Translations under genes and position numbers: made by a program
Virus record (IMG/VR): IMGVR_UViG_3300045988_101878
Coordinates: 1 to 64,000 of that record
Direction: 5' to 3' (one strand)
DNA: 64,000 nucleotides
DNA from: a virus
In this document: in pieces, positions 15,658 through 37,552 of the stretch
Position numbering within the stretch: the stretch's first letter is position 1
Layout of the letters: every line of letters begins with the position of its first letter
The notes under the pieces: generated by a model
Databases searched by the model: none
What the model saw: the letters and a program-made list of their open reading frames with translations, nothing else
What the model was told of the DNA's origin: nothing

Positions 15658-15680
15658 CGAAAGATATAACATTACGTATT

Positions 15681-15995
15681 ATGAGAATAGAAGAAATACT
15701 AACAGAAAAAGGCATGAGTAAGGCCGCGTTAGCCGAGAAAATGAATACTTCGCGGCAGAATATAAATTCACTTTTAAAAAATCCATCAGCAAAGAAAATC
15801 GAAGAATTTGCGGCGGCGTTAGATGTTCCCGTATGGCAATTGTTCGCTTCTCCTGCTGAGGTCACAAACATTCCTCAGGAGACCAACGCAGAGTTTGCAG
15901 CCTTCATCCGCTACAAGGGCATCCATTACACGGCTGACTCTCTGGAGGAATTCAATACAATCGTGGAAGAGATAAGAAGTATAACTAATAATTAA
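15681..15995 (+). CDS. XRE/cI-type helix-turn-helix regulator (104 aa)
   Basis: MRIEEILTEKGMSKAALAEKMNTSRQNINSLLKNP is a classic HTH_3 pattern. Start set at ATG 15681. Confidence 0.75.
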   Translation: MRIEEILTEKGMSKAALAEKMNTSRQNINSLLKNPSAKKIEEFAAALDVPVWQLFASPAEVTNIPQETNAEFAAFIRYKGIHYTADSLEEFNTIVEEIRSITNN

Positions 15996-16003
15996 AAAAA
16001 ACA

Positions 16004-17817: not shown

Positions 17818-17858
17818 GTGGTTATAGGATTTATGTTGAACATTAAAACTTGCAAGAT

Positions 17859-18563: not shown

Positions 18564-18597
18564 TCATATATATTTCAAATTAAAATTATTGCTCAAC

Positions 18598-19251: not shown

Positions 19252-20602
19252 TCCGGCTGAACCTGCTCCGTTAGTGCAACAAGCTGCGGGGCAGGTGCCT
19301 GTGCAGGGGAATGTTGGACAGCCTCAGCAGGTTGTTCAGCAAGCTCCTCAGCAGCAGAATGTGGTGCAGCCTGGGCAGGTGGCTCAGCCTCAGCAACCTG
19401 TTAATGTGTTCAGCGGTGGCTCTGGACGACCCACTACGTTTGAGAACATGCCTACGACTGTAGGATGGACTCCTTTCGGCAACCCTGTAAATGAGGGGAG
19501 CAAGGCTCAGCAATCGTGGCAGACGATGAATTCCAAAAACACGGAAGGAAGAATGCCAGCCGCTTACGCTCTTAACTCTAAGCCTTTGGGTGGTGTTGAT
19601 TTGGGTGCTGTTGGTGGTGATAAGGGTGTTACTGCTGTGTTTGAGAGGGACGATAGCCAAAGGGATGGTGGTTTCTTTAAGTGGCTTGGCGGTCTTGCCA
19701 AGAAGCGACCGGGCAGACGCGAGGGAGAAACCGACGAAGAGTATGACGAGCGCATGACAAGGAACAATATGCGCATTGCCACTCTTGCGGACGCTATCCG
19801 ACACATGGGCAATATCTACAATACGATGAAGGGCGGTCCTTCTCAGCAGTTCAACAGCCCTGCGGCTGTGTATGAACAGCAGATGCAGCAACGCAAGGCA
19901 GAAAGAAAGTCGAAATTGGCGGCAGCAGCAGAGAGTGCGTATAAGGATGCACAGTTGCAGCTCAAGATGGATGCAGCCAACACGGACAAGGCTTACAAGG
20001 CGATGAACCTTGAGCTGAAAAAGGATGCAGGCAGACGTGCGGACGAAAGTGCTAAGGCTATGAATGAATACCGCAAGGGACAGCTTGGCATCCAGGAGGG
20101 CAACCTTAAGCTTTCGGAAAAGAGACTCGGGGAAACTATGCGACACAACAGAGCTTCGGAAGGTCTTAGCGCAAGCAGACTTGCTTTATCGAGAACCAAG
20201 GCAAATGGCGGATATAAAGGAAGCGGCAAGGGTCTCGGTTCTGTAACCAACCTTTCTACTCCATACGGACACTTAAACCGCAAAAAGGACCTTAATACCA
20301 TTGAGAAGAGACAGATTTTGGATTTTTTGTTTAAAAATGGATTTATTACCGATGCAGCTGCAAAAAAATACACAAATGCTGTTGATGAACGAGAGCGTGG
20401 CGCAATACTTAACGGTTGGATAGGTTGGGCAGCTAACGCAAAGGGAACAAGAGCAGGAAAATTCAGAAAGATGCTTATAGACCACTACGGATATTCTCCT
20501 ACAAATACCGTTGGCGGTGGCAAAGCTCCAGCTGCTCCTGCAAAGAGCAAGAACAACGCCAAGCCAAAGAAAGGCGGTTGGGCGTCGGGTTTTAAACTTT
20601 AA
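19226..20602 (+). CDS. protein with a Gln/Pro/Val-rich N-terminus and a basic helical body (458 aa)
   Basis: First in-frame ATG is at 19226, overlapping the previous gene by 26 nt. The true start is uncertain. Confidence 0.55.
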   Translation: MVQRRNPSNPAEPAPLVQQAAGQVPVQGNVGQPQQVVQQAPQQQNVVQPGQVAQPQQPVNVFSGGSGRPTTFENMPTTVGWTPFGNPVNEGSKAQQSWQTMNSKNTEGRMPAAYALNSKPLGGVDLGAVGGDKGVTAVFERDDSQRDGGFFKWLGGLAKKRPGRREGETDEEYDERMTRNNMRIATLADAIRHMGNIYNTMKGGPSQQFNSPAAVYEQQMQQRKAERKSKLAAAAESAYKDAQLQLKMDAANTDKAYKAMNLELKKDAGRRADESAKAMNEYRKGQLGIQEGNLKLSEKRLGETMRHNRASEGLSASRLALSRTKANGGYKGSGKGLGSVTNLSTPYGHLNRKKDLNTIEKRQILDFLFKNGFITDAAAKKYTNAVDERERGAILNGWIGWAANAKGTRAGKFRKMLIDHYGYSPTNTVGGGKAPAAPAKSKNNAKPKKGGWASGFKL

Positions 20603-20614: not shown

Positions 20615-23600
20615 ATGGCAATAGATAGAAGTAAGTTGCAGAGGATGTACAAGCTTATGGCTGACAACGGCTATACCCAGGACTATAATACATTCGAGAA
20701 GAAGTTTACTGGTGACAGCAATTACGCCAACAGAAAGGCTGTGTACGACCTGTTCACAAAGAATGGTGCTGACTTGGGAGGCTCGTATGAGGAGTTTATG
20801 CGCAAGTTGCAGAAGCCAAGAGCGACAAAGCCTCAGCAGCAACCAAAGACCGCATTAGGCAGGGCACAACAGAGCGTGGCGCAACAGAAATGGGGAGGCT
20901 ATGGTGGTGCTGTGACTCCAATGCAGAATGACAGCGAGCTTGTGCGCGGATTGAAGAATGCGGACGCGGCACAGAGGTTGCAGGTTCCCGTGAGCTATGC
21001 AAAGCCGGGTGCTGTGAAACAGATGGTGAAGCAGACAAGGGAGAGACAGCATGTCGTTGGGCAGAATGTGGAGCAGGCAGGACGTAGAACCATGCAGCCA
21101 TTACGTGAAGAAGAGAAGAAAAACAGAACACCCGTTTTTGATACTGGCAACAAGAATCTGAACCAGTATGTGGTGAACACGCAGGGACAGATGGAGCGTC
21201 AGATGATGGACAGCGGACGTGAGATTGCAGGTGATCATCTTGGAGACTATATCTCCTACAATATCCGCAATGAGTTTGACGCTGCTGCCAAGAGAGGACT
21301 GGAGGCTGAGTCAGCCTTGAGCAAGGCTTCACCATTCGCCTCTATGGTAGCTGGCAAGGCTTACAACGATGCGCTTGACCCCGATATGCTTATAAAGAAT
21401 CTCTCCAAGAAAGCGGAGAGCGATATGGCAAACATTCTCTCAGACCCGAAAGTGCTTGAGAATATTGGCGTTAAGGCGGCTGCCTATGGTGTTGACCCAG
21501 AGGAATATGTAAACAAGATATTCGCTCCTGGCTTGCAAGCAAAGATAGCCGAGGAGTTTGAGAAGAGCGAGCTGAGCCGTAATATGCCTAAGAGTACGGC
21601 AGAATACATCATCCGCGGTGTTAATGACTCGATGATTGGTACTATCTTGTCAATGAGCATGATGTCAAAGAAGCAGAGACAGTATGCTCAGCAAGGAATG
21701 GCAATGACCGATAACGGCGAGAATCCTGATGTTAACCCGAATATGGGCGCAAGAGTGGCACGCGGAACATTGAGCTTTGTTGCTGATGCTCCTGTATTTG
21801 GTGCTGCTGGAAAGGCAGGTGCTGCTGTTGCAGGAAAGGTATTCGGCAATGGAGTGGCACAGATGGCGAGAGTGGCAAATTCTTCTTTGGGTGGACGTAT
21901 TGCTCGTATGGCAGGTTCTGGAATGGTGAGCCAAGGCGTTACTGGTGTGCTTTACGGTTCGACGAATGCGGCTGTACAGAACTACTCTACTGGCGACGAC
22001 ACTTCTATTGGCAATACCGTGAAGCTTATGACTATGGGCGGCGTTTCGGAAGGCGCAAGTTGGGCCACTATGGGTGGCATTGGCGGTGCTGTTGGAGGAA
22101 GCCTGTATAATGTGAGTGGTTTTAAGCGCATTCCTGCCAAGGTGTTCCAGATAGCGATGGAAGGCGTTGGTATGCACATGGGTGGTAATGTTGCCAAGAT
22201 GATAGAGGGTCATGATACCGACTGGCTGAGCGTAGAGGGGAACCTTGAGGCTTGTGCCAATGTTGTAGCCTTGAAGCTGACACACGCAAGACTGCCTAAG
22301 CGTTATGCGAAGGACGGCAAGAAGGAAAGCTATCTTGGCATGGTGGCGAGAAATCTTTATAATCTTACTGTCTCGGACAGACAGAGAACTGCCCTTGGTG
22401 GATATACTTTCACCAATGAGGAGAAAGAACAGCTGTTCGGGAGCGCGAATGCGCCAAGGAGAAAAGAATATACCTACGGATATGATAAGTATGACGTGCC
22501 TTTGACAAGAAGTGAAAATCTTATTGATTGGGCATTGAGAACCAAGAAGACAACAGCCAGAGGAAAGGGCGAGGAATCTTATAATGGCACGGACGCTGAG
22601 TTTGTGAAGACTGCCTATGACGAGATAATGGCTGACAATACCATTCCTTGGGACACAAAAGCTAAATTCTCGGCTTTGGTTATGGGAACTGTTCCTTCGG
22701 CACGTCCGATGATGGACCATATAGCGATAGAGCGTGACGAGAGAGGAGCGTATGTGGGTGAATATAGCCTTTATGGAGAGTTGCTCTCAAAGAACCGCTA
22801 TAAGACAGCCGACGAATACGTTTCAATCAAATACAATCTTGGGGCGAAGAAAGAAAACCAACGTTTGAGTAATGCCTATGGTGCAGCTCAGATAAAGGAC
22901 GAGAAGGCGGCACAAGAAACATTGGAGACTGTAGCTGAGACGTTTGGCTTTACTGCTGAACAGTTGAAGGCAGCTATGGACAAAGACCCGTTGAAGCGCA
23001 GCGAGGAGGAACAGAATGCTTGTGTGGCTCTGAGAAAGGCTTATGAGGGAGAGCAGTTCCCGGAAGGAACGTTGCATCCCGACCAGTCGCAGACAGAGGG
23101 CAAGGACGTGGTTGAGGAGAATAACCTTGGCACGGAGAATCCTAACAACGAGGCTGTGGCTGAGGTGCTGAACAACATGAATAATGCCGAAAAGGCGTTT
23201 AATGCAGCCTTGGAAAGCAACGATGTGTTGAAGCAGGAGTATGAGAGACTGGCAAAGGAGGGTCTTTCGGAACCTCAGATATACATGGAGCTGTTTAATT
23301 CGGGACTGACGCAGGAACAGCTTGCACCTTTTGCCGACTACATCAACGCCAAGGCTAAGGCTGTGGGCATGTATCGCGGAACTGAACAGAAGATTGCTGA
23401 GACCGTGCAGAAGCATGTGGAGCAATGGAGCTACAAGGGCGAGCTGAATGGCGAGAAGCAAGAGGGCGGTCAGATGGTGTTCGTGAAGGACAACAAGGGC
23501 AGACTGCTGATTGTTGGAGCGGGCGATGTTGCCTTTGATAATGATGGCAGAGCGAGAGAAAGCGTTGGCGACATGCTTAGCGTGCTTGATGCTGAGAAGG

Positions 23601-26600
23601 GAGAAATGGACTTCGTGAGCGTTAAGGACGTGAAACTGGAGCGCACTGTGGCAAGCGAGGAGTATGCAAAGGAATACCAGGAACTGTTGGAGGTTAAGAA
23701 CTCTGAGGTGTATGCTCAGAATGAGCAGCAAAAGCAGATGGAGAATGCGGCAGGTGGTGTGACACCTGAAGGTGGAAAGCCGGAACAGCCGATAACAGAG
23801 CAGGGCAACGCAGAGACTACCGTGCAGACTGGCGAGGCAAACAAGCCTGTGCGTACATTTGCCGATGGCTCACCTGTGCCCATGACAAAGGATTCGAAGG
23901 GTCGCGAGACTGCTGCCTACTCGATGATGACTCCAGAGCAGGGAGCCGAGTGGATAGAAAAGACATTCGGAGAGGATGCTGAGGCTGTGGCAGACGGTAA
24001 GATTGAGCGAGCCAAGAAGGATTTGAGCAAAGCCGAGAAGATGGATATAGACATGACCGCTGACGATGCGGACGTACTGGAGGCTAAGACCAAGAAGAAG
24101 GCTGCTATTGAAGCTGCCCAAAAGGAGCTTGAGCTTTACACCAACATCAAGATGGCGATGGTGGAGAAGAAGGTGAAGGCTACGATGGAGAAAGAAAATA
24201 CTGTAGGTGAGGTAGATAGTGCAAGTCGTGTTAGTGACGCCGTGCGCGAGAAGTTCGAGAAATCAAAGAAGATTCCCGGACGACGTGGTTCTATCACTCT
24301 TCCTGATGGAACTAAGATAACTGGTCAATACTTTTATGGCGAGGTTTCAGGACTTACACCTTCGCACGATCCGTTTAATGACTTTAAGCAGAACGAGGGA
24401 TTCCCAGTTAATGAAGACGGCTCTTCCTCAAACTCACGTTCTTACAAAGACAAGGAGTCGCGTCTGTTTACAGAGAAAATTGGCAGAGACTTTGGCGGGC
24501 AAGCACTAAAGAATGTGCCAGTTGTGCAGGATGGTATTCTGTTAAGCGGAAATGGCACGACTATGGGTAAACAACTTGCGGAACGCTATGGTACTGACGG
24601 CAAGTATTATGAGAGCCTAAGTGAAAACGCAGAAGGCTTCGGCTGGACTCCAAAGCAAATTGAAGAGGCAGGCTTTAAGGGTACTGTATATTTTGTACCC
24701 GACAAAAAGATGCCACTTACAAGTAAGACATTTGACCTTTTCAACAAGCAAGAGACAAAGAGCATTGGCAATACAGAGCAGTCGGTAAAGAATGCCAAGG
24801 TGTTAGACACGGACGAGATTAGTGCCATCGTGTCGGAGATAGAAGGAAGTGGCAGTCTTGACGCATTCTTTAACAATCCTACTGCAATAAACTCGTTGCT
24901 AAAGCGTTTAATTGATAAGGGCGTTATTGGCTTGAACGAGGTAGCCGGATTGCGCGAGGGCGAGAACAAACTTTCGGCTTCGGGCAAGGACTTTGTGAGA
25001 AACCTGCTGTTGGGCAGCGTGTTCTCGGAGGACACTATCAGAATGATGGGTGCAGACGCAGGTTTGAAGTCGAAGGCTCTGAATGGTATACGTGCCGTGC
25101 TTGACAATATGAAGCTTGGCGACTATGCCCTTAGAGGCGAGATTGACAAGGCTGTGCAGTTGGTATATGAGGCACGTCAGCAAGGTGGCGACGTGGATGC
25201 TTATTTGCGCACTCCTGCCATGTTCGGAGAAAATGCGGCAGATAGATACGACCCAATATCACAGGCTATAGCTCTTGCGCTTGACGGCAAGGCTGAGGAC
25301 TTCCGCGATTTGATGATGGCATACAACCGCAATGCGGCACATTATGCCGATGCTAATCAGTTGGACGTGTTCGGCGACCGACCTACAAAGGAGGAGTTCA
25401 TTAACGAATTTTTGAAACTTAGAAACTGGAAGAACTATGAAACAAGACGTTCAGAAAATGAAGGAAATGGCGATGTTGGCGGCACTCAAGGAAGTGAACC
25501 AGAAACGTCAGGAGGAAATGAACAGACAGAAGGAGAAGGAGTAACGCCTACTGGTGCAGGCGCGGGTTCGCCTATGGACCCAGACAGATTTGACCGAGCT
25601 GTTGAGCAGCTAAAGACTGCCAAGGGTGAGGAGCGTGAACGTATACTCGACCAAATGGAAGAGTATGTGAATGAGTTTGCCGAGAGCAATGGATATGACA
25701 AGCCAGTTGTGCTGAGAACAAAGAAGGACTTGGCGGATGCGGCGAAAGACCCAGACGACAAATTCGCAATAGAAAATATGCCAGATGATGCCCATAATCC
25801 TGGTTATTATGAGGATGGGAAAATCCATATATATCTTGAAGGCAGTAGAGGTTCTAAAGAGTTGCGCGAGACATTTGAGCACGAGTCGGTTCATGCTGAC
25901 AATGATGCAGACCCTTCAAGAGTGGAAATGCTCATTTCTTCCGTAAACGAGACTGGCGAGATAACATTTGAAGAATTAGAAAAAGTTGTTGAGACTTTAT
26001 CTAACTCAGACCGTTATTCATACCTTGCAGAAAAGCTGGATTACAACGATGGATTGCGCATGTTGGCAGATGAAGCCTTAGCGCACCTTGTTGCACATGC
26101 TTATAAAAATGGTATAGATGCGATGTCGGATATAACTAAGAATTCTACATTACTCTATATAGCAAAAAAATCATTTAAATTTAGAGAAAATGAAAGACAG
26201 CGACAAGAACGAGAATCAATTAGTGGAAGTACTGAGCAACAGCGGAAGAAAGTCGATGTTCAGCCTACACAAGAGCACAGTGGAACTGTGGGAGAAAATA
26301 ATGAAGGAAAATCCGGAGTTGTCACAGATGCAAGCATTGGGACAGGCATTCGTGATAATGAAGGAGAAGGAGAAACAATAAATGACAGAAGAAGAAAAGA
26401 AGGACTTGCAAAGAGTGGAGATAAGACACTCGAGCGGAAGAATCTCGATGATGTATCTACCGAAGAAAACGGTGGAGCATTGGAGGGAGATAAGGAAGGC
26501 AAACCCGAAAATGACAATGGAGGAAGCCCTGATAGAGACATTCAAGCAGGAGAAGAACAGCGAGAAGTAGAAGAAAAAGCAATATTTGAACAGAGAAAGG

Positions 26601-29600: not shown

Positions 29601-32600
29601 TAGCCAAAGGCAAAAAGTTTGGTGCAGCAGCAATCAGCGGACAAGCCCGACGTGACGCTATAGAAAAGCTCATGAAGAACGGCTATCTGATATTGGACGA
29701 GAGCCATACAGCAGGAGGTGACAGCGGTCAAGGCAACTACTTCCAGCACATCATTCAGAAGGCAAAGAACGTGACCTTCTTCTCTGCAACCTTCGCAAAG
29801 CGTCCCGACAACATGCCAATCTACGCGCTAAGAACGGCAATGAACCAGGGAGGAATGAAAGCATCCGACTTGATAGACGCCGTGAAGCGTGGAGGAGCCA
29901 CACTACAGGAAATCATGAGTCAGGCGCTGACCCAATGCGGACAGATGATACGTCGCGAGCGAGACATGACAGGCGTGACTATTGACTGGAAAGCCATTGA
30001 CGACCCCGAAGTTGTTGCCGAACAGCGCGAGCAGTATGACAGCATCATCGGTCTGTTCAACGACATCATCAACTTCCAAAGAACCTATGTAAGCGCATAC
30101 GTAGACAGACGTAATGAAGAACTTGCAGAGGTGCAGTCGTCGATGGGCATAAAGCGTGGCACAGAAGCCTTGGGAATAAAGAACCAACCGTTTGCAAGCA
30201 AGGCATTCAATACTGTGCAACAAGTGCTTCTCTCGCTTAAAGCAAAGTCGGCAGCAGAAAGAGCTATTGACTACTTGAAGCAAGGCATGAAGCCTGTGAT
30301 AGCATTGAACAATACCAACGAGTCGCAGACGGGTAACCTTGCGCTTGGCGAAGAAATGGACGCTCCCGACTTGGGCACATCACTAAAGAAAGGACTTGAA
30401 GGTACGCTTCGCTATACGAGCAAGAACGCTAAGGACGAAAGCGAAAGCGGATATATTAATCTGAAAGACTTGGGTGCAGATGCCGTTGAGGCATACCATG
30501 CTCTTGAAGAAAAGATAAGAAAGACAAGTACCGGACTATCGCTCTCGCCTATCGACGTTATTAAGAACGAACTGACAAAGGCAGGGTATAAGGTAGGCGA
30601 GTTGACTGGTAGACAGACAGAGTTTGTGTATAACGAGAACGGCACGGTAACGAAGGTGAAGCGTGCGGACACAGACAAGAAGAAACTTGCGAGAGAGTTT
30701 AACGACGGACAGATAGACGCGCTAATCTTGAACAAGAGTGCGGCAACTGGTATATCACTCCATGCTTCAAGCAAATATGCCGACCAGAGAAAACGAGTTA
30801 TGATTGTTGCCCAGCAGCAGCTTGACGTGAACGATGAGGTGCAGATGCGTGGACGTATAGACAGAACGGGACAGGTGGCAAGAGGCGCATACGAATACGT
30901 TGTGTCGCTTATCCCGGCAGAGCAGCGACTGTTGATGATGTTCAAGGCAAAGCTGAAATCATTGGACGCAAACACCACTTCTTCACAGAAGAGCAAGTTC
31001 AATGAAATGGAAGTAGCCGACATTACCAATAAGTACGGAGACAAGGTGGTGAAGGAATACATGGCAGAACACCTTGACTTGTATGCACGTATGGCAGACC
31101 CATTCGGATGGGAGAAATCTTATGGAGCAGACTTATCAACAGTAGACCCACAAAAGTTGGTTTCTTCTTCTGACGGCATGAATAGTGAGGCTGGAGGCGA
31201 CGCTAACAAGTTGCTTGGCCGTATGGCTTTGCTGAAAGTGAAAGAGCAAGAGAAGATGTTGCAAGAGATAGGCGACCTTTATGCAGCCGAGATACAACGT
31301 CTGAACGAAATGGGCGAAAACGACTTGGAGATAACAGAGTTGCCTTTGAAAGCTAAGACCTTAGACAGGATTATTTGGAAGGAAGGTACAGAACCAGGCG
31401 GCGACAATGCCTTTGCCGACAATACTTATATAGAGAAGGTGAATATGGCTGTACTGAAAAAGCCGATGAAAGCGGAGGAGGTAAAGAAAGCTCAGGACGG
31501 ACTCACGGGCGGCAAGTCGTGGGACGAATACCGCAAGGAGAAGCTAACCGCTGCAAAAGAATACTTTGACAAGAAGATAGCCGAAGCTACTCAGAAATAC
31601 GAGGAGCGTGCCGTTAAGGCTGCAACAAAGGTAAAGGAGAAGTATATCAAGGAAGCAAAGAAGGGTCAGAAAGAAACTGGCGTGAGCGACGAGCAGATTG
31701 AAAAGACTGCTGGCTATCAGTACGAAAACGCCTATAACGATGAGAAGACTAAGCTTGACGAAGTGGTGAAGAACCTCAAAGCGAAGTATGGCGTATTTGA
31801 GCGTGCGCTTGAAACATTCAACACAGAAGACGCATTTGTACTGCCAACAGACATGAACAATCCCGCTGAGTTGAGCGGATTCGGCAACAGCTATGGCAGA
31901 CTGATAGACATAAAGATAACTGACAACTTCTCGCCAAACGCCTCAACAATATCGTTCGCCACATTGGACGGACGAAGAAAGATAACATTCCCTATAAACG
32001 GAAAAGCAGGACTCGGAATCGACAAGGTTGATGTTATAGAAATTATTGACAGGCAGACAAGGCAGGCATCGTCGTTGGGTGACAAGAATCTACGTGTATT
32101 GAGTATGGATGCCTCCAACTGGGACAAGCTGACAAGCAACGAGAGCCGTAAGGACGGATATATCATTACCGGAAACTTGCTGCAAGGCTTGATTGACACC
32201 AAGGCAGAGTTCTTGGGTGCTCAGTTAGTGAAATATACAACAGATACAGGTGAAGTCAAAACTGGTATTTTGTTATCTGGTAATGTAAAACTGAAAAACC
32301 TTGCCAACGAGAAGCCTATTAATAGCGTAGCTGAAAAATTTGAATTGCCATCTAACAAGGGTGGCATAACAGAGGTGACATCTTCGGACGGAGACGTGAA
32401 GATAGAGCAAAGTTCAGTTTACACAAGAGAGGAATCTAACTATAACATCCGTGTTCCAAAGAGTAACAAAAAGGGAGGCAAGTATTTCCTTGATAAAGAG
32501 CTGCTGCAAATGGTTGTTGGCGGTAACTTTGAGACAAGAGGAAACACGATGTTTGCCCAGATAAAGACTGGAAAGCTAAAGGATGTACTTGACAGACTTT

Positions 32601-35600
32601 CGGAGCTTGGCGTAAAGGTAAAGGAAGAAAGCAAGGTGCATTACCGCATGGAGCTTGGCAACACCTTCTCAGACAGCAAGGAACACTTTGACGCTGTGAG
32701 AGACAGAGCTGTGGAGGAGAAAGGAATCGTTATGCCTAATCTGAATAAGGAGAAGGTGAAGGTGGTAGAGGTTGAGAAATCTCCCTTTGGTGACAATATT
32801 GAAACTTCTTTAAAAAATGCCAGAGAATGGGCAAAAGAAAACCTTGTAACAACGGGAAAGACAGAAATGCCTATTATGCGCGATGGTACATCTTATACAA
32901 TCAGCAAAAGGGCTGTTGAAAAATATCTTTCAGAAAGTGCTGTTCGTAAAAGTGAGAATCTTGACATTCATCTTTCGGTACTTCCCAAACTTACAGATGT
33001 TGTCCATGAGAGCATTGAAGCAGAGATACACCCGGATTACAAAAAGGGTGAAGACGGAATACGTGGTATTGAGAATGGATATGGTGAAGGTATTTTAGTA
33101 CATAGACTTTATGGCGCAGTAGAACTGGACGGTAAGATGTATCGTGTTAAGACTACTATGCAAGAGTTCAGAGGTGGGGAAGAAAACAAACCTCATAGCT
33201 ATGAGGTAACAAAAATAGAGCTGCTTGACTCCCCTGGAAAGCGAGAAAATCCCGACAGACCACCTTTGGTTTCATCAAACAACTCTAAAAATATAACGTC
33301 GGAAGGTTCCGAGAAAGCGAACGAATCCGACAGTCTCCCTTTGAACAGTGCAACCAACGGTTATATTTCAACTGCAAAGTTACTGCAAGGAGTTGAGAAA
33401 TCCTACGATTCGGGCAAGAAATTGCTTGATGAGAGTAAAGATTTAACAGATGGGGAGACTTTCTTTAGAAAAGAAGGCGATGGTGTTGTAACACCTGAGA
33501 AGACTTCGAATGCTATGAGCGAGCGTATCATCAAGACCGTTGAGAAGGTTGCCAAGAGAACTGGAGGCAAGGTGAAGATGGTGAACTCGGTTGAGGAGAT
33601 TGAGAACCCGAAGGTGCGCAAGGACATAGAGAACGGCAAGCAGGTGACTGGCTGGTATGACGAGAAGACGGGCGAGGTGCATCTGTATATGCCGAACATC
33701 CATGACACGTATACCGCGGAGAAAACCGTTTGGCACGAGACTGTAGGACACAAGGGCATGAGAGGTTTGCTTGGAGATAAGTTTGACTCCTACATGAGAG
33801 ACCTTTGGATGGACTTGGACAACCCTATCAATGCTGAGCTGAGAGCTTATGTGAAGGAAAAAATGAACATGAATCACCTTGGATTCTATGACGCTATTGA
33901 GGAGTTTATCGCCAAGAGCGCAGAGGACGGAAAGGGTGAGCCTGGCTTCTGGAACTACATTAAGAATAAGGTAACAGATGCCCTGCATGAGATAGGCTAC
34001 AGAGTTTCGCCTAACGTGAAGGACGTGAAGTATATGCTGTGGCTGGCGAAGAACGTGCAGAAGCATGGAGACAGTCCGCTGTGGAAGCTGAGAGCTGAGG
34101 CTGTGAGGTGGAAGATAGAGCATGAGAAGACGGAGTACACGAAGATTGAGGGCGGCGAGCTGTATGACAACGACGGCAAGAGCCATGACTTCGAGAGCAT
34201 GAGCCGCGAGGAATGGCTGGAGGCAACGGACGGAGAGATACACTACCGCACGACTCCAAGCGCTGCTACCGCTTTGGACAGATACCATCATGCCCTGGAC
34301 CGTCATAGCTATATGGCTACGGAGGCTTTCATGGACAATATGCTCTCGTTGAAGAAACTCATGGAGGCTATTGATCCATCTATCAGAAAGATAGAAGATG
34401 TGGCAAGCTCGATGAACCCATATCTGATGCAGAATATCACGGAGGGCAAGATGAGCGACAAATCCAAGCTCTTCGAAATACGCTATATGGACCCGCTTAG
34501 CAAGGCTATGTCGAGCGTGTTGGACAGCTTCGATGGCAAGAAGGTGGAGGACAGAATAAGGAACTTCAATCTGTATATGATTAGAAAGCATGGATTGGAG
34601 AGAAACCGTGTGCTGTTCGTGAGAGACAAGATAAGGGAAGAACGAAAAGTGAAGAGTGAAGAATCCAATAGTATTGATGCTTTGGAGACTGCTTGGAAGG
34701 GCGAAAAATACGACCTTAGAAAGAAGCTTGACTCGGGACAGATAGACTTGAAGGAGTACTACCGTCAGATGGACGAGTGGATTGTAACGAACTTGGACAA
34801 GGACTTTAAGGCTGAGGAGCATGACTATTCGGGTATGCACGGCTTGCAGGGTATTGCAGACAAGAAAGCAGCTTATGATGATGCCGGAGCTATTGACGAG
34901 GTAATGAGCCAGGAGGCGAGCATGGAAAGCATGAAGAAAGGCTCAGTTGCCGACTTCTGGAAGAAGGTGAAGGCAGCTACTGATTATTCTGTAAATTCGG
35001 ACTATGAGAGTGGACTGATAAGTCAAATTACACACGACGGAGTGTTGGGCATGTTTGACTGGTATGTACCGTTGAGAAAGTTTGACGAGGCTACCGCTGA
35101 GGACGTATACGGATATGTGACAGAAATGGGCGACCCAAGCAACTATATCGGCACGACGCTGATGAACGCCAAGGGACGAAAGAGCCTGAGCAATGTGGAG
35201 ATATTGGCACAGATTGGCTTAATGGGCAACCGTGCGATAAGAAACGGAGGTCAGAACACTATAAAGCAAGCCTTTGCGCGATTCGTGAGAAACAGCGGAG
35301 AGCAGAATCTTGTGAAGGAGACAAAGGTTTGGGTAGAAAAAATAGGCACAGACAGAAACGGTAACGACATTTGGGAGGAGGCTTATCCGAAGATTCCCGA
35401 AGGAGCCGAAGCTGATGAAGTTGCAGAAATTGTGGATGCCTTTGAAACGGACATGAGGGCCAAGCAAGCTAAGGGCGAGGCAAAGAGTCTGAGCAACAGC
35501 ACGGACATCGGCTTCAAGTTCCAAAGAGCGAAGGACAAGAGCCAACACTTTGTGGACGTGAAGATAGCAGGAAGAACACACAGATTTGTGGTGCTTGGCA

Positions 35601-37552
35601 ATCCGAGAGCGGCACAGGCTTTGAATGGAATGCTGGAGAATGGCAAGGCAAGCCAAAAGTGGTTGCAGACTGTGACACGATGGATGGCTATGGCCTCAAC
35701 ATCGTGGAGTCCGGAGTTTGTAATGAGAAACATCGTGAGAGACGCGGAATTTGCATCTTCGCATGTGAGGGCAAAGGAAGGTGGAATATATGCTAAGAAA
35801 TGGGCACGCTATTATGGTGAGCTTAATCCGCTGAATGTGTTCTACAATGAGGGCGCAGGAAGATTGAAGAGCATGAAGATGAAAGACTTCAAGAATGGTG
35901 TAGGCTTCGGACTGTATGCCCGATACAGAGAGGGCACGCTTGGCAACTCGAAGATGGAGCGATACTTCAAGGAGTTCATGGAGAACGGTGGCGAAACAGG
36001 TTTTGTTCAGTTGTTCTCGATGCACGACATGGAGAAGAGCTACAAGAGTATCGTTGAGAAGGAGTCGGCAAAGGGCGCGAAGAAGGTTATGGTTAATGCT
36101 ATGGAAGTGCTTAAGAATTTAGGCAAAAACGTGGAGAGTTTGAATGAGGTGGCTGAGAATATGGCACGCTTCGCCACGTATTGCACTTCAAGGGACTTGG
36201 GACGTTCGGCAGCAAGAAGCGCGTATGACGCAAAGGAGGTTTCGACAAACTTCAACCGTCATGGTTCGGGCGATGAAATAAAGAGCTTCAAGAACGGAGA
36301 AATGAGCGGTTGGCAGAAGACAAAACGAAACACATACGGCTTTGTGGCTGGCTACCTAAGAAACTACTCGATGTTCTTCAATGCTGGCATTCAGAGCACG
36401 AACCTGCTGTTCAAGAATATCAAACGTGCGCCTGTGGGTACCGCTGTTGCTATGACCTCTGCCCCGTTTGCCTTAGCGTTGATTATGGCTGCTGTCAACA
36501 ATGCTATTATACAGAATGAGGATGATAAGGACAGAGGCAACGTGAAGGATCCGTATGGCGAGTTGCCTGACTATATCAGACGAAACAATCTGTGTATATA
36601 TGTGGGCAATAACAAATTTGTGACTGTGCCGTTGGCCATTGAGCTGAGAGCGTTCTATAGTCTTGGTGACTTGGCAGCAGGACAGACGTTTGCCAAGAAC
36701 GTGAAGAGTCAGAGAAACATAGCGATGGATGCTGTGGGCTGTATGTCGCAGCTATTCCCGGTAACGGACTTCTTGAATAATCCGAATTATGAAAAGAGCT
36801 TGGAAAATGGAGTTGGTATGACTATTAAAGGTCTTGCTCCTACTGCTATAGTTCCGTTCATTGAGTGGTGGCTTAACAACGACTGGAAGGGTGCGCCAAT
36901 AAGACGAACGGGCGATAAGACAGAGCTTAACCCGGCATGGCAGAACGCCTATAATAATGTTCCGGCAAGACTTGTGGACTTGAACAAGTGGGTGAACGCC
37001 AAGACTAACAACATAGCTCCTGGCAATCCGGAAATGAAGGGTAACGATGCTCTTGACTGGATTACAGACCCGTCGATGCTTAATCATTTCTATAGCTCGT
37101 GGAGTGGCGGAATGGGCACATTCGTTCAGCGTACTGCAGGCTTGGGTGCAAAGGCAACGACTGGCAAGGCTGACGAGATAGAAGTGGGCGACGTGCCATT
37201 CTTGCGCTCACTCTTCTATACTCCAAGAGAACAGTCGAGCATGGCGAGAACCAAAGCCAAATGGTATAACTACAAGGAGGAAATGGAACAGACTATCGCC
37301 AATAACGACAAGCTGAAATCGAAGAACGTGCCGACGATGAAGAGGATTGAAAATGCTGCTGTATTAGAGAAGTTCGAAGGTTCGCCTGAGCAAAGAAAGG
37401 TGAATATCATCAAGAATGCGGAAAAGCGAATGAGACACTGGAACACTATGAAAAAGAAGTGGGCCGATGATAAGAAGCAGGTGGACTTTGCGAACCATAA
37501 TATTGAGATGATAATGCAGGAGGCGGTGGAGGAATTGGATAGGATTGAATGA
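20615..37552 (+). CDS. giant polyvalent multi-domain protein (5,645 aa): ParB-like + zincin + N6-adenine DNA methyltransferase + SNF2/strawberry-notch-type helicase + second zincin + C-terminal membrane segment
   Basis: Uninterrupted ORF in the supplied track. Motifs read directly: SHDP...LLSGNGTTMG, HESVH, EPSAGNG...NPPFG, GDMTGIGKGRQ, LILDESH, GISLHAS, QMRGRIDRTGQ, WHETVGHKG. Confidence 0.8.
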   Translation: MAIDRSKLQRMYKLMADNGYTQDYNTFEKKFTGDSNYANRKAVYDLFTKNGADLGGSYEEFMRKLQKPRATKPQQQPKTALGRAQQSVAQQKWGGYGGAVTPMQNDSELVRGLKNADAAQRLQVPVSYAKPGAVKQMVKQTRERQHVVGQNVEQAGRRTMQPLREEEKKNRTPVFDTGNKNLNQYVVNTQGQMERQMMDSGREIAGDHLGDYISYNIRNEFDAAAKRGLEAESALSKASPFASMVAGKAYNDALDPDMLIKNLSKKAESDMANILSDPKVLENIGVKAAAYGVDPEEYVNKIFAPGLQAKIAEEFEKSELSRNMPKSTAEYIIRGVNDSMIGTILSMSMMSKKQRQYAQQGMAMTDNGENPDVNPNMGARVARGTLSFVADAPVFGAAGKAGAAVAGKVFGNGVAQMARVANSSLGGRIARMAGSGMVSQGVTGVLYGSTNAAVQNYSTGDDTSIGNTVKLMTMGGVSEGASWATMGGIGGAVGGSLYNVSGFKRIPAKVFQIAMEGVGMHMGGNVAKMIEGHDTDWLSVEGNLEACANVVALKLTHARLPKRYAKDGKKESYLGMVARNLYNLTVSDRQRTALGGYTFTNEEKEQLFGSANAPRRKEYTYGYDKYDVPLTRSENLIDWALRTKKTTARGKGEESYNGTDAEFVKTAYDEIMADNTIPWDTKAKFSALVMGTVPSARPMMDHIAIERDERGAYVGEYSLYGELLSKNRYKTADEYVSIKYNLGAKKENQRLSNAYGAAQIKDEKAAQETLETVAETFGFTAEQLKAAMDKDPLKRSEEEQNACVALRKAYEGEQFPEGTLHPDQSQTEGKDVVEENNLGTENPNNEAVAEVLNNMNNAEKAFNAALESNDVLKQEYERLAKEGLSEPQIYMELFNSGLTQEQLAPFADYINAKAKAVGMYRGTEQKIAETVQKHVEQWSYKGELNGEKQEGGQMVFVKDNKGRLLIVGAGDVAFDNDGRARESVGDMLSVLDAEKGEMDFVSVKDVKLERTVASEEYAKEYQELLEVKNSEVYAQNEQQKQMENAAGGVTPEGGKPEQPITEQGNAETTVQTGEANKPVRTFADGSPVPMTKDSKGRETAAYSMMTPEQGAEWIEKTFGEDAEAVADGKIERAKKDLSKAEKMDIDMTADDADVLEAKTKKKAAIEAAQKELELYTNIKMAMVEKKVKATMEKENTVGEVDSASRVSDAVREKFEKSKKIPGRRGSITLPDGTKITGQYFYGEVSGLTPSHDPFNDFKQNEGFPVNEDGSSSNSRSYKDKESRLFTEKIGRDFGGQALKNVPVVQDGILLSGNGTTMGKQLAERYGTDGKYYESLSENAEGFGWTPKQIEEAGFKGTVYFVPDKKMPLTSKTFDLFNKQETKSIGNTEQSVKNAKVLDTDEISAIVSEIEGSGSLDAFFNNPTAINSLLKRLIDKGVIGLNEVAGLREGENKLSASGKDFVRNLLLGSVFSEDTIRMMGADAGLKSKALNGIRAVLDNMKLGDYALRGEIDKAVQLVYEARQQGGDVDAYLRTPAMFGENAADRYDPISQAIALALDGKAEDFRDLMMAYNRNAAHYADANQLDVFGDRPTKEEFINEFLKLRNWKNYETRRSENEGNGDVGGTQGSEPETSGGNEQTEGEGVTPTGAGAGSPMDPDRFDRAVEQLKTAKGEERERILDQMEEYVNEFAESNGYDKPVVLRTKKDLADAAKDPDDKFAIENMPDDAHNPGYYEDGKIHIYLEGSRGSKELRETFEHESVHADNDADPSRVEMLISSVNETGEITFEELEKVVETLSNSDRYSYLAEKLDYNDGLRMLADEALAHLVAHAYKNGIDAMSDITKNSTLLYIAKKSFKFRENERQRQERESISGSTEQQRKKVDVQPTQEHSGTVGENNEGKSGVVTDASIGTGIRDNEGEGETINDRRRKEGLAKSGDKTLERKNLDDVSTEENGGALEGDKEGKPENDNGGSPDRDIQAGEEQREVEEKAIFEQRKAEYLKALKEGKTGKELENAKLHYKFSFLDYQNIMGVTDAESLEKLWKRELESAKDSNGIGSEEALAILPKKEEKTFDPIGKAAENYKKDHPLTDEEIRSSDVDDIAKDMAVDYLNGEVTDDLHRAVYESIYEKVKDAKMKNATKQADNKTETTETPNVEASASPIEGMKNAAEKFAKEKEAAVEAMGEVKKPQQKADDAAVEASNKKVNDLWNDLLKAGREDLSASFIGLNARQLEVLPKLVSAMAENAYLRIKRGMHNLEDVVKEMRKEFAPAAQVFKKEDVDAIYEQMMNIRYRDGEQRMSLKEWADYYEKISPKHKEELVGDSKEAEERKIREKKFIDKVNLRLGFGQKINGIVELRKMAEECGLKDVKDTDLQELAETAIVQRARGIASSESTNNTEKFKRIKKLYENQPSLNQRDSERVMKQQYSTPAPYAFLADMYVKAGIEVKSALEPSAGNGMLTIGLPKDAVHVNDIDAQRLANLQRQGFKNVTSQDGTQPFADKDVDVVVTNPPFGSATPRDYDGYTISSLEGQMAINALESMKDNGRAAIIIGGKTEYAKNGSLNPKDKAFLGYLYSHYNVEDVINVDGSLYAKQGTTYPTRIILINGRRFDENAYPPVKDKARAEAVKSYDELYKRINDDILRSGRMDSPVGEGGEDANAKPNRPSVADANEEGVRAGGNGGGEQKPSVRTGGVHDKTAEPVSDNVLGTEGGTKPGENGGLPDGAIGANGAGTEPTSSKEPTTGTNKQRGNEPGGNGRPNTQPNADETTDAGNGGRPRGQLERVDKPVRGLSAEKVAYTPRSENPFTLKAVMPADQQEAVNKNLEKLGDADQFLVDELGYNDKADLYAHLAAEQVDSVALALQQAKKGNAFIIGDMTGIGKGRQAASLIRYAKNQGQVPVYFTKTAGLLSDVYRDLVDIGSKELRPFVFGSAKEAAITDADGNVVFALPSKNEVKRVLDYIEKNGELPKEYDYVLTTYSQVSNGVYEFDENGNRKERKLAKGKKFGAAAISGQARRDAIEKLMKNGYLILDESHTAGGDSGQGNYFQHIIQKAKNVTFFSATFAKRPDNMPIYALRTAMNQGGMKASDLIDAVKRGGATLQEIMSQALTQCGQMIRRERDMTGVTIDWKAIDDPEVVAEQREQYDSIIGLFNDIINFQRTYVSAYVDRRNEELAEVQSSMGIKRGTEALGIKNQPFASKAFNTVQQVLLSLKAKSAAERAIDYLKQGMKPVIALNNTNESQTGNLALGEEMDAPDLGTSLKKGLEGTLRYTSKNAKDESESGYINLKDLGADAVEAYHALEEKIRKTSTGLSLSPIDVIKNELTKAGYKVGELTGRQTEFVYNENGTVTKVKRADTDKKKLAREFNDGQIDALILNKSAATGISLHASSKYADQRKRVMIVAQQQLDVNDEVQMRGRIDRTGQVARGAYEYVVSLIPAEQRLLMMFKAKLKSLDANTTSSQKSKFNEMEVADITNKYGDKVVKEYMAEHLDLYARMADPFGWEKSYGADLSTVDPQKLVSSSDGMNSEAGGDANKLLGRMALLKVKEQEKMLQEIGDLYAAEIQRLNEMGENDLEITELPLKAKTLDRIIWKEGTEPGGDNAFADNTYIEKVNMAVLKKPMKAEEVKKAQDGLTGGKSWDEYRKEKLTAAKEYFDKKIAEATQKYEERAVKAATKVKEKYIKEAKKGQKETGVSDEQIEKTAGYQYENAYNDEKTKLDEVVKNLKAKYGVFERALETFNTEDAFVLPTDMNNPAELSGFGNSYGRLIDIKITDNFSPNASTISFATLDGRRKITFPINGKAGLGIDKVDVIEIIDRQTRQASSLGDKNLRVLSMDASNWDKLTSNESRKDGYIITGNLLQGLIDTKAEFLGAQLVKYTTDTGEVKTGILLSGNVKLKNLANEKPINSVAEKFELPSNKGGITEVTSSDGDVKIEQSSVYTREESNYNIRVPKSNKKGGKYFLDKELLQMVVGGNFETRGNTMFAQIKTGKLKDVLDRLSELGVKVKEESKVHYRMELGNTFSDSKEHFDAVRDRAVEEKGIVMPNLNKEKVKVVEVEKSPFGDNIETSLKNAREWAKENLVTTGKTEMPIMRDGTSYTISKRAVEKYLSESAVRKSENLDIHLSVLPKLTDVVHESIEAEIHPDYKKGEDGIRGIENGYGEGILVHRLYGAVELDGKMYRVKTTMQEFRGGEENKPHSYEVTKIELLDSPGKRENPDRPPLVSSNNSKNITSEGSEKANESDSLPLNSATNGYISTAKLLQGVEKSYDSGKKLLDESKDLTDGETFFRKEGDGVVTPEKTSNAMSERIIKTVEKVAKRTGGKVKMVNSVEEIENPKVRKDIENGKQVTGWYDEKTGEVHLYMPNIHDTYTAEKTVWHETVGHKGMRGLLGDKFDSYMRDLWMDLDNPINAELRAYVKEKMNMNHLGFYDAIEEFIAKSAEDGKGEPGFWNYIKNKVTDALHEIGYRVSPNVKDVKYMLWLAKNVQKHGDSPLWKLRAEAVRWKIEHEKTEYTKIEGGELYDNDGKSHDFESMSREEWLEATDGEIHYRTTPSAATALDRYHHALDRHSYMATEAFMDNMLSLKKLMEAIDPSIRKIEDVASSMNPYLMQNITEGKMSDKSKLFEIRYMDPLSKAMSSVLDSFDGKKVEDRIRNFNLYMIRKHGLERNRVLFVRDKIREERKVKSEESNSIDALETAWKGEKYDLRKKLDSGQIDLKEYYRQMDEWIVTNLDKDFKAEEHDYSGMHGLQGIADKKAAYDDAGAIDEVMSQEASMESMKKGSVADFWKKVKAATDYSVNSDYESGLISQITHDGVLGMFDWYVPLRKFDEATAEDVYGYVTEMGDPSNYIGTTLMNAKGRKSLSNVEILAQIGLMGNRAIRNGGQNTIKQAFARFVRNSGEQNLVKETKVWVEKIGTDRNGNDIWEEAYPKIPEGAEADEVAEIVDAFETDMRAKQAKGEAKSLSNSTDIGFKFQRAKDKSQHFVDVKIAGRTHRFVVLGNPRAAQALNGMLENGKASQKWLQTVTRWMAMASTSWSPEFVMRNIVRDAEFASSHVRAKEGGIYAKKWARYYGELNPLNVFYNEGAGRLKSMKMKDFKNGVGFGLYARYREGTLGNSKMERYFKEFMENGGETGFVQLFSMHDMEKSYKSIVEKESAKGAKKVMVNAMEVLKNLGKNVESLNEVAENMARFATYCTSRDLGRSAARSAYDAKEVSTNFNRHGSGDEIKSFKNGEMSGWQKTKRNTYGFVAGYLRNYSMFFNAGIQSTNLLFKNIKRAPVGTAVAMTSAPFALALIMAAVNNAIIQNEDDKDRGNVKDPYGELPDYIRRNNLCIYVGNNKFVTVPLAIELRAFYSLGDLAAGQTFAKNVKSQRNIAMDAVGCMSQLFPVTDFLNNPNYEKSLENGVGMTIKGLAPTAIVPFIEWWLNNDWKGAPIRRTGDKTELNPAWQNAYNNVPARLVDLNKWVNAKTNNIAPGNPEMKGNDALDWITDPSMLNHFYSSWSGGMGTFVQRTAGLGAKATTGKADEIEVGDVPFLRSLFYTPREQSSMARTKAKWYNYKEEMEQTIANNDKLKSKNVPTMKRIENAAVLEKFEGSPEQRKVNIIKNAEKRMRHWNTMKKKWADDKKQVDFANHNIEMIMQEAVEELDRIE
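24362..24568 (+). other. ParB/sulfiredoxin-like (DdrB-type) domain signature within the giant ORF
   Basis: LTPSHDPFNDF...VPVVQDGILLSGNGTTMG resembles the DdrB-like ParB domains described in polyvalent proteins. Confidence 0.5.
25880..25894 (+). other. first HExxH zincin motif within the giant ORF
   Basis: IHIYLEGSRGSKELRETFEHESVHAD. Confidence 0.55.
26190..26381 (+). CDS. candidate overprinted gene A: 63-aa ribbon-helix-helix-like protein in the +1 frame of the giant ORF
   Basis: Complete ATG..TAA ORF and paralogue of the next ORF. Shows a CopG/Arc-like strand-helix-turn-helix pattern (RKSMFSLHKSTVELWEKIMKENPELSQMQALGQAF). Confidence 0.45.
   Translation: MKDSDKNENQLVEVLSNSGRKSMFSLHKSTVELWEKIMKENPELSQMQALGQAFVIMKEKEKQ
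26382..26570 (+). CDS. candidate overprinted gene B: 62-aa ribbon-helix-helix-like paralogue in the +1 frame of the giant ORF
   Basis: Starts immediately after the stop of A (CAA TAA ATG). GGAG lies 9 nt upstream. Sequence RISMMYLPKKTVEHWREIRKANPKMTMEEALIETF. Confidence 0.45.
   Translation: MTEEEKKDLQRVEIRHSSGRISMMYLPKKTVEHWREIRKANPKMTMEEALIETFKQEKNSEK
27959..28147 (+). other. N6-adenine DNA methyltransferase core (motif I to motif IV) within the giant ORF
   Basis: Motif I LEPSAGNGML, then VVTNPPFGS (NPPF catalytic motif) in gamma-class order. Confidence 0.8.
28575..28979 (+). CDS. speculative +1-frame ORF encoding a 134-aa strongly acidic helical protein inside a second low-complexity linker
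   Basis: GAAGGAGGAG lies 3-4 nt upstream of ATG 28575. Sequence MLTQNLIDRALLTLMKREYEQEETEE...MEDFLMELLEQ. T-poor DNA could keep this frame open by chance. Confidence 0.2.
   Translation: MLTQNLIDRALLTLMKREYEQEETEEANKSLQFVLEEYMTRLPNQFPTMYWGQKEEPSQEKMEDFLMELLEQTEQGQSLLQARNQPLEPTSSEEMNQEEMDDLTLSQMLMKLPMPGTEGDHGDNWSGWTNPYVD
29225..30874 (+). other. SNF2/strawberry-notch-like helicase core within the giant ORF
   Basis: Motif I GDMTGIGKGRQ (29225), motif II LILDESH (DESH at 29696), GISLHAS, motif VI QMRGRIDRTGQ (30842). Confidence 0.75.
33734..33751 (+). other. second HExxH zincin motif within the giant ORF
   Basis: GEVHLYMPNIHDTYTAEKTVWHETVGHKGMRGLLG. Confidence 0.55.
36433..36510 (+). other. 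predicted transmembrane helix near the C-terminus of the giant ORF
   Basis: VGTAVAMTSAPFALALIMAAVNNAII. Confidence 0.5.

Follow-up and report, generated by a model that had tools for sequence, protein, structure and literature searches.

The window analysed here is a 64,000-nucleotide stretch of viral DNA (positions 1 to 64,000 of IMG/VR record IMGVR_UViG_3300045988_101878) that contains one giant open reading frame (ORF); the runner-up in length encodes 893 aa. The giant ORF starts with ATG and runs for 5,645 codons with zero internal stops, bearing out the uninterrupted 16.9-kb frame claimed in a preliminary description made from the sequence alone, and the chance probability of such an open frame, calculated at ~3 stops per 64 codons, is ~e^-270. 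Its product, hereafter the giant protein, has fixed ends, consisting of a ~62-aa leader and a 1,345-aa C-terminal module, and a variable interior that carries, in order, the aa 96-1033 region, a degenerate ParB domain, an HExxH zincin-like domain, a methylase, a strawberry-notch-type superfamily 2 (SF2) translocase and LPD3. We propose that the phage is a short-tailed one of the Bacteroidales and that the ORF probably encodes one of its internal virion ("ejection") proteins, a chain of ~630 kDa that also carries effector cargo. Its features are listed below with their coordinates in the window, strand, position in the protein (aa) and basis of assignment.

20615..37552, +: giant ORF, 5,645 codons plus stop (ORF list; continuity backed by independent assemblies)
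20615..20800, +: N-terminal leader with a twin ~28-aa motif, aa 1-62 (BLAST similarity between giants)
21740..22219, +: Gly/Ala/Val-rich block, aa 376-535, within aa 96-1033 (composition)
24362..24664, +: degenerate DdrB-type ParB domain, aa ~1250-1350 (Pfam ddrB-ParB, PF18763, sub-threshold)
25604..26164, +: zincin-like domain 1, aa 1664-1850, with HESVH-ADN and ADE..AH (conserved motifs)
27812..28474, +: N6-adenine DNA methyltransferase, aa ~2400-2620, with motif I EPSAGNG and motif IV NPPFG (Pfam MTS)
29048..32632, +: SF2 helicase/translocase of the strawberry-notch type, aa 2812-3574, with a conserved extension to aa ~4006 (Pfam)
32810..33181, +: LPD3, aa 4066-4189 (Pfam LPD3, 37.5 bits against a threshold of 27)
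33515..37549, +: conserved C-terminal module, aa 4301-5645, 1,345 aa (collinearity in relatives; phrog_14770, phrog_616)
33515..34054, +: zincin-like domain 2, aa 4301-4480, with HETVGH (HExxxH) and EE..A..AE (conserved motifs, AlphaFold2 model)
36428..36514, +: single transmembrane (TM)-like helix, aa 5272-5300 (Kyte-Doolittle)
36548..37204, +: LPD38, aa 5312-5530 (Pfam LPD38)
aa 66-95, 1034-1081, 1603-1662, 1850-1990, 2127-2169, 2641-2787 and 4205-4249: low-complexity linkers

A motif search of the translation found all of the previously reported motifs in place: the ParB signature with SHDP (aa 1250, nt 24362) and LLSGNGTTMG (aa 1309), HESVH (aa 1756, nt 25880), the methylase motifs EPSAGNG (aa 2449) and NPPFG (aa 2507), the helicase motifs GDMTGIGKGRQ, DESH, GISLHAS and QMRGRIDRTGQ at aa 2871, 3028, 3379 and 3410, and WHETVGH at aa 4373 (nt 33731). 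Both zincin motifs are present, the second being of the HExxxH form (HETVGH), and HESVH is the sole HExxH of the protein. The low-complexity linkers that had been noted between domains amount to seven such stretches.

The frame is not an assembly accident: among the 75 related IMG/VR loci that possess a full 10-kb flank upstream of the tail module, 74 are open throughout that flank. Continuous relatives come from independent assemblies and from isolates, and include a metagenomic protein of 5,726 aa with the same N-terminus as the giant protein (P0090), a 4,822-codon open frame that spans a scaffold gap (contig L004), and ORFs of 5,391 aa (BS-TP4 gp3) and 5,553 aa (BKO1-TP3 gp55) in cultured Bacteroides phages; full-length relatives range from 5,391 to 6,126 aa. 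Tandem repeats able to cause misassembly were not found. Some database relatives are listed as separate genes of 900-2,300 aa, but the splits that we checked correspond to scaffold gaps or contig ends. In contigs L006 and L007, apparent gene splits coincide with 10-N gaps (L006 9948-9957; L007 3385-3394 and 4140-4149) that lie directly upstream of the C-terminal module, the L007 gap being inside a low-complexity linker, and gene callers therefore list a module-sized "stand-alone" protein. Other short entries are truncated by the end of their contig. The linkers seem to be assembly break points that inflate the count of apparently separate genes in protein databases. We considered whether the tail module also exists as a stand-alone gene, as two exactly module-sized entries (P0042 and P0064) would imply, and rejected this, as both gene starts fall at 10-N scaffold gaps.

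In-frame stops are rare among the relatives. One relative, contig L003, has a single TAG (12776-12778) that replaces a Tyr codon through a one-base change, with the frame open beyond it, and a second TAG is present in IMG/VR contig L030, the one locus of the 75 with any in-frame stop. These codons may stem from recent nonsense mutation or from sequencing error, or they may be suppressed in the cell. Stop-codon recoding was considered and rejected because the L003 TAG stands in for a Tyr codon and such stops are too rare.

Comparison of the relatives shows that the interior is a mosaic of cassettes gained and lost at linkers. Against P0090, the closest full-length relative, the giant protein is 71% identical over aa 1-1899 and 94-95% identical over aa 2049-4013 and 4298-5645; P0090 carries a 514-aa cassette where the giant protein has 150 aa, and lacks the LPD3 cassette (aa 4014-4297), with 8 aa in its place. 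Several cassette breakpoints lie in or beside low-complexity linkers. The product of L003 is 64-76% identical over the N-terminal 1,900 aa and has a different centre. BS-TP4 gp3 has both the C-terminal module and the methylase-helicase block in common with the giant protein (40% identity over aa 2351-4006), whereas BKO1-TP3 gp55 has only the C-terminal module in common.

The C-terminal module comprises an HExxxH zincin-like domain, a long helical region, one TM-like helix and LPD38, and is collinear in every relative found, at 27-99% identity. The 3,427-position profile phrog_14770 gives a collinear match from aa ~2360 to the end of the protein, and phrog_616 matches the tail at E 6e-27. Relatives of the module are encoded on at least 554 IMG/VR contigs, and tblastn located it in 335 phage records, including Shiga toxin (Stx), Vibrio, Ralstonia and Burkholderia phages, with coverage of ~aa 4800-5560 and E-values down to ~1e-27 (Vibrio), ~1e-24 (Stx) and ~1e-20 (Ralstonia); examples are an Stx match over query residues 376-930 (E ~1e-23) and a Ralstonia match over residues 200-904 (E ~1e-17). 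LPD38 itself is matched nearly from end to end (profile positions 2-189 of 189; 97.3 bits, E 1.5e-27). The TM-like helix, which had been proposed at 36433-36510, was confirmed as a hydrophobic segment with a 19-residue mean of 1.89, and it is the sole segment above 1.5 in the 5,645 residues. The helix keeps its place, 331-373 residues before the C-terminus, in four giants of Bacteroides-, Burkholderia- and Prevotella-type phages (the giant protein, BS-TP4 gp3, BKO1-TP3 gp55 and BcepMigl gp69), and a weaker one (1.22) is present in Stx 75/02 gp68. The earlier picture of a membrane-anchored tail is accordingly right about the hydrophobic helix, and must be amended in that the tail is no appendix but part of the sole module conserved in all relatives.

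At the front of this module, zincin-like domain 2 keeps HE.V.H and EE..A..AE across 25-99% identity. Its AlphaFold2 model (mean predicted local distance difference test, pLDDT, 71.7) places a helix, three strands, the HExxxH helix and the EE helix in an order that fits the zincin-like metallopeptidase layout, in which a three-stranded sheet precedes the helix bearing HExxH or HExxxH and a Glu stands on the following helix. A Foldseek search of viral models returned nine matches at E <= 1e-3; these are large polyvalent proteins and, at E 3.7e-4, a protein of Stx phage phi191 labeled "MuF C-terminal domain." The PTXU04 polyvalent protein was matched at E 0.019. Among solved structures nothing was significant, anthrax lethal factor ranking 31 and 35 at E ~4-5. 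Zincin-like domain 1, in the interior, belongs to a tiny family (17 clusters among 1.84 billion representatives) in which six of ten fetched members are 3,182-6,126 aa long and HE[SY][VT]H[AN]DN and ADE..AH are invariant down to 28% identity. The two domains can be aligned collinearly with hhalign at a probability of 0.9% and E 0.027, which is not significant. We infer from the motifs that protease activity is plausible for these domains, since neither matches a Pfam peptidase model and the domain 2 model has no significant counterpart among solved structures. Proteins of ~2,340 aa (P0083-P0086) combine zincin-like domain 1, at their apparent N-terminus, with a strawberry-notch-type helicase; they are encoded on contigs of up to 141 kb, which may be cellular or prophage.

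What is known of the module's function comes from podoviruses of the 933W/GP4/Bcep22 type, whose LPD38 virion proteins (JC1 gp69, Bcep22 gp75, BcepMigl gp69, phi24B gp47 and PTXU04_00025) have it in common with the giant protein. JC1 gp69 (4,515 aa, labeled "DarB-like") yielded 51 unique peptides from virions purified on cesium chloride, together with the products of the genes immediately upstream, gp67 and gp68 (PMC9144972). The phi24B protein gp47 (2,811 aa, with LPD5, LPD1, LPD38 and a MuF-C peptidase) is abundant in virions and invisible in the cryo-electron microscopy map, and its authors proposed it to be an ejection protein (bioRxiv 10.64898/2026.04.10.717836). Knock-down of PTXU04_00025, an LPD38 protein of 2,198 aa, impairs infection (bioRxiv 10.1101/2023.09.18.558157). 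These proteins differ from the giant protein in being shorter (2,198-4,658 aa), only 22-26% identical to it in the module and encoded by phages of Proteobacteria; their cargo is different (LPD5 and LPD1 in the Stx phages), and the experiments were performed outside the Bacteroidales lineage. Because the homologues of its tail module are virion proteins, delivery of the giant protein with the DNA is plausible by analogy.

The methylase and helicase assignments of the preliminary description both hold in profile searches, with Pfam thresholds passed and catalytic motifs intact. The methylase matches Pfam MTS at 24.1 bits (threshold 23), with weak matches to UPF0020 and Eco57I, and PHROG DNA-methyltransferase families match the same region. 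C-terminal to the methylase motifs in the same chain, the helicase core spans aa 2871-3420, matches AAA_34 (59 bits), Helicase_C_4 (96.5 bits) and ResIII (27.9 bits), and retains Walker A, DESH and QxxGRxxRxGQ. An LPD36 match ahead of the methylase was not found. Long stretches that had been suggested to hold new effector domains are mostly not independent effectors: aa 3462-4006 are the C-terminal half of the helicase with its conserved extension, aa 4066-4189 are LPD3, aa 4396-5262 belong to the tail module matched by phrog_14770 and phrog_616, and only aa 96-1033 are left without assignment. An NCBIfam search of the giant protein returned nothing, and sequence searches of five of its segments against the PDB gave chance-level matches only.

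The comparison with phage P1 DarB suggested by these domains holds for the architecture. P1 DarB protects incoming DNA from type I restriction and depends on DarA, Hdf, DdrA, DdrB and Ulx. It has the same domain order as the giant protein, with an N6-adenine methylase N-terminal to an SF2 helicase in one large chain, and it is packaged into the capsid by means of an N-terminal signal; the Dar system also includes a DdrB-type ParB and a zincin-like domain. The claimed Dar-like kinship does not go beyond this. BLASTP of aa 2301-3700 against DarB aligned methylase motifs I-IV (28% identity over 99 aa, E 0.004) and 28 aa around helicase motif V (E 0.003), so that similarity is at the level of motifs, and the helicases belong to different subfamilies: DarB matches N6_Mtase, SNF2-rel_dom (41 bits) and Helicase_C (27.7 bits), whereas the giant protein reaches only 11.8 bits with SNF2-rel_dom and instead combines MTS/Eco57I with AAA_34 and Helicase_C_4. 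DarB has no Pfam LPD38 match, and P1 is a myovirus in which such functions are split over several genes, unlike in the giant protein.

The N-terminal part of the giant protein contains the second fixed element. The leader matches the N-termini of P0095 (6,126 aa; 52% identity, E 4e-20) and BKO1-TP3 gp55 (26% identity, E 3e-6), and no BLAST similarity to either protein was found over the ~900 aa that follow. Giants that are otherwise unlike one another begin with its motif, ..hY..h...G[YA]......F.., and P0095 has a further unit internally (aa 178-201, E 2e-4); P0001, P0009 and BS-TP4 gp3 have a different type of leader. In P1 DarB, the N-terminal 30 residues suffice for capsid targeting (PMC9024508), and by analogy the leader may be a capsid-targeting signal. 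The region that follows, aa 96-1033, has no match in Pfam, PHROG, NCBIfam or the PDB and only 11 word-index homologues, all of them close relatives; PHROG matches are absent throughout aa 1-2200. Within it, the Gly/Ala-rich hydrophobic block described earlier is real (20% Gly, 14% Ala, and 28 small-xxx-small motifs against ~9 expected), and its hydrophobicity is not of TM grade because the 19-residue Kyte-Doolittle mean peaks at only 1.18.

The proposed ParB-like domain is homologous by position to PF18763 domains of relatives, and falls below the Pfam gathering threshold (19.5 bits against 27.6; E 0.0012, profile positions 57-112 of 121). The region can be aligned throughout with P0090, L003, P0009, P0062 and P0093-P0097, and existing annotation assigns PF18763 to P0004, P0009, P0062 and the product of L003; BS-TP4 gp3, which is outside that alignment, has a ddrB-ParB domain at a similar position with 84.7 bits. 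In the giant protein, NDRDY has become NSRSY, GNGRTMAG has become GNGTTMGK and HPR has become GT, with loss of the NDRDY aspartates and the GNGRT arginine that all eight aligned relatives keep, the closest ones included. The rest of the domain remains alignable, and ParB may be a decaying or repurposed cassette in an otherwise intact ORF.

Three smaller genes lead up to the giant ORF.

17850..18563, +: ORF of 237 aa, putative T7 gp14-like internal virion (ejectosome) protein (Pfam T7_gp14)
18556..20602, +: two tightly packed ORFs of 231 and 461 aa, between the gp14-like gene and the giant ORF (ORF list)

The gp14-like ORF scores 25.0 bits (E 2e-5, profile positions 5-157 of 187), below the 27-bit threshold, and its homologues in L003 and BKO1-TP3 (gp57) match the same family at 23.3 and 23.4 bits; these three diverged sequences all fall slightly short of the threshold but cover almost the full profile. 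The homology with BKO1-TP3 gp57, which lies two genes upstream of the giant ORF of that phage, has a phmmer E of 3.7e-21. The 231- and 461-aa ORFs have no Pfam or PHROG match; the arrangement is syntenic in L003, where the two ORFs encode 217 and 480 aa. BKO1-TP3 gp56 shows weak similarity to the 461-aa ORF (E 8e-4), and in JC1 the virion-associated gp67 and gp68 occupy the same position before the giant gp69. Elsewhere in the window are a portal gene (P22_portal, 98 bits; phrog_156), weaker PHROG matches for terminase, an SU10-like adaptor (23.5 bits, sub-threshold), a beta-helix tailspike-like protein and an immunoglobulin-domain structural protein, and together these features are consistent with the virion of a short-tailed phage. 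The portal gene is 11 kb from the giant gene in the window; in BKO1-TP3 and BS-TP4 the giant gene abuts it. The gp14-like ORF upstream and the P22-type portal agree with the neighborhood of internal or ejection proteins that had been proposed for this locus. The database names of relatives point to Prevotella and the human gut, and the virus is a gut phage, probably one of Prevotella.

Several other features of the window lie outside this gene block. Two paralogous antirepressor-type genes of the Rha/KilAC (ANT) kind, at 9712-10578 and 48006-48785, both on the reverse strand, are ~38 kb apart. A PcfJ-like gene occupies 10582-11805 (reverse strand), and L003 (506-2271) also has PcfK and DpnD/PcfM; the PcfJ, PcfK and DpnD-PcfM families were first described on conjugative elements. 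Positions 12001-16000, between the leftward and rightward gene blocks, have low GC content (0.38-0.41), reversed GC and AT skew and short ORFs only, and could be a regulatory or origin region. The 893-aa ORF (55549-58230, forward strand) directly follows the terminase-like gene and has no Pfam match; in L004 a 903-aa ORF adjoins one of 711 aa, which is terminase-sized.

The giant protein belongs to a class already on record. Phage-type polyvalent proteins, predicted to be delivered with the DNA, were described by Iyer, Burroughs, Anand, de Souza and Aravind (2017, J Bacteriol; PMC5512222), whose account lists for the class a methylase-SF2 helicase dyad, DdrB-ParB, HEXXH and HEXXXH peptidases, LPD3 and LPD38, treats LPD38 and DdrB-ParB as phage-type only, ties the class to portal-terminase phages and describes shuffling of cassettes between orthologues. 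The preliminary description had linked the protein to this class, and we concur. One chain unites the methylase-helicase dyad with the DdrB-type ParB, both zincin-like domains and, toward its C-terminus, the hydrophobic helix; MTS, AAA_34/Helicase_C_4, LPD3 and LPD38 all exceed Pfam thresholds, and the phage has portal and terminase-like genes. Measured against that account (PMC5512222), the giant protein is alike in its domain types, in carrying many unrelated domains per chain and in its portal-terminase context, and it differs in that its N-terminal 1,000 aa match no domain of the class and its ParB is degenerate; the layout of fixed ends and a variable middle was likewise not found in the parts of it consulted.

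The protein is neither unique nor the most extreme case. Its relatives reach from 5,391 aa to 6,126 aa, the larger ones being metagenomic; GenBank already includes two from cultured Bacteroides phages, and 5,645 aa falls near the upper end of the sizes found. These two, BKO1-TP3 gp55 and BS-TP4 gp3 (PQ571269, PQ571277), are of the same size class as the giant protein, match its C-terminal module at 27-28% identity over ~1,200 aa and place the hydrophobic helix at the same distance from the C-terminus; BKO1-TP3 also has the gp14-like gene upstream. BLAST of their N-terminal ~2,300 aa against that of the giant protein found no similarity, and BS-TP4 gp3 carries an inorganic pyrophosphatase cassette that the giant protein lacks. 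BKO1-TP3 gp55 was deposited as "DarB-like antirestriction," and the paper describing the two phages does not discuss the protein (PMC12694917). Since earlier work already documents the class, the probability that it is delivered with DNA, and relatives of equal size in cultured Bacteroides phages, the window adds a well-dissected example and not a new principle. What is new here is the layout of a fixed leader and fixed tail with cassette exchange at linkers, the degenerate ParB, the non-DarB helicase subfamily and the link through the tail module to experimentally supported ejection proteins.

We favor the view that the giant protein is probably an ejection component first of all, with anti-restriction as cargo, because its tail module is common to virion proteins of JC1 and phi24B, knock-down of the PTXU04 homologue affects infection, and DarB offers a precedent for N-terminal loading. 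Large internal podovirus proteins that leave the capsid with the DNA and span the envelope are known from T7 (gp14-gp15-gp16), P22 (gp7-gp20-gp16) and N4 (the virion RNA polymerase); the likeness, which for T7 includes a gp14-like gene upstream of the giant ORF, is one of function and not of family membership, and neither a transglycosylase nor an RNA polymerase domain was found in the giant protein. For the N4 polymerase, a C-terminal region with a zincin-like domain is needed for encapsidation (PMC5512222). The architecture, conservation and genomic context are established above; we infer the following course for packaging, ejection, membrane insertion, processing and anti-restriction. The giant protein would be built into the procapsid and would exit through the portal and tail at infection, along with the gp14-like and neighboring small proteins. 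The C-terminal module would help to form or anchor a conduit across the envelope, its hydrophobic helix inserting into the inner membrane. Restriction and other defenses would be blunted by the methylase-helicase pair and the remaining cassettes, acting on or near the entering DNA; the cargo would consist of the methylase-translocase first, perhaps ParB and LPD3, and perhaps activities within aa 96-1033. Functional pieces may be cleaved from the chain by the zincin-like domains, which may in this way release the cargo.

Several observations weigh against this proposal. Presence in the virion and a role in infection are known from homologues only, and for this phage they are drawn by analogy. 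The gp14 and SU10-adaptor matches are sub-threshold in Pfam, phmmer comparison with T7 gp14, gp15 and gp16 gave no significant match for the N-terminal 1,300 aa or the upstream ORFs, and no lytic transglycosylase domain was detected with Pfam. The zincin-like domains lack a Pfam peptidase match, and the fold search among solved structures was not significant. The lone hydrophobic helix could just as well pack inside a bundle of helices. For aa 4760-5645, AlphaFold2 gave a poor model (pLDDT 52, predicted template-modeling score 0.34), and Foldseek with this low-confidence model found no match. Lastly, a chain of 630 kDa would have to pass through a podovirus tail.

An alternative, which is the view of the preliminary description and which we consider unlikely, is that the giant protein is purely an accessory of the Dar kind, a dispensable anti-restriction effector packaged like P1 DarB and DdrB, with no structural or ejection role and a helix that serves as an anchor only. 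The methylase-helicase order of DarB, the presence of a DdrB-type ParB domain, the packaging of DarB via an N-terminal signal and the label "DarB-like antirestriction" that GenBank annotators gave to homologues all speak for it. The methylase-helicase is, however, not the part that is conserved, as BKO1-TP3 gp55 has just the C-terminal module in common, and the ParB of this copy is degenerate. Moreover, the 2,198-aa PTXU04 protein is needed for efficient infection with LPD38 as its sole confident annotation, the domains reported for phi24B gp47 do not list a methylase or helicase, and similarity to DarB is confined to motifs, with a different helicase subfamily. There is only a slim chance that the protein acts in the producer cell and is not delivered, as a membrane-tethered factor for replication, modification or superinfection exclusion whose methylase-helicase modifies progeny DNA before packaging. 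A single TM-like helix, intact methylase and translocase motifs and the fact that the virion evidence comes from homologues would all accommodate such a factor, but the tail-module homologues are virion proteins in two unrelated host systems, the gene neighbors are a gp14-like internal-virion gene and, in relatives, the portal gene, and the class is tied to portal-terminase phages and delivery with DNA in its published account (PMC5512222). An artifact, in which misassembly or the erroneous loss of stops or frameshifts during sequencing joined neighboring genes, is all but refuted by the continuous relatives, the open flanks, the gap-associated splits and the lack of tandem repeats described above, against which stand the separately listed short genes and the single-base TAG of L003.

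Returning to the giant protein as an ejection component, the fixed ends and exchangeable interior raise a further possibility, which we put forward tentatively and hold to be somewhat doubtful: that it is a modular delivery platform and not a fused Dar system. The leader would serve capsid targeting and an essential tail would serve ejection and anchoring, with exchangeable anti-defense cassettes between them and the linkers acting as recombination joints and possibly as protease cut sites. If this is true, related phages could swap cargo quickly, aa 96-1033 would be an undescribed effector or structural domain, and ParB would be a decaying cassette in turnover.

Giant genes of this kind take up a fifth to a quarter of a phage genome of 60-85 kb, and must therefore pay for themselves. 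The tail module is widespread in phage metagenome catalogs, and the cassette train that precedes it is a catalog of candidate anti-defense activities for the Bacteroidales, in which phage-host conflict is poorly studied. The fixed leader and tail also point to a natural means by which large foreign proteins could be packed into capsids and carried into cells, as has been proposed for the P1 DarB signal.

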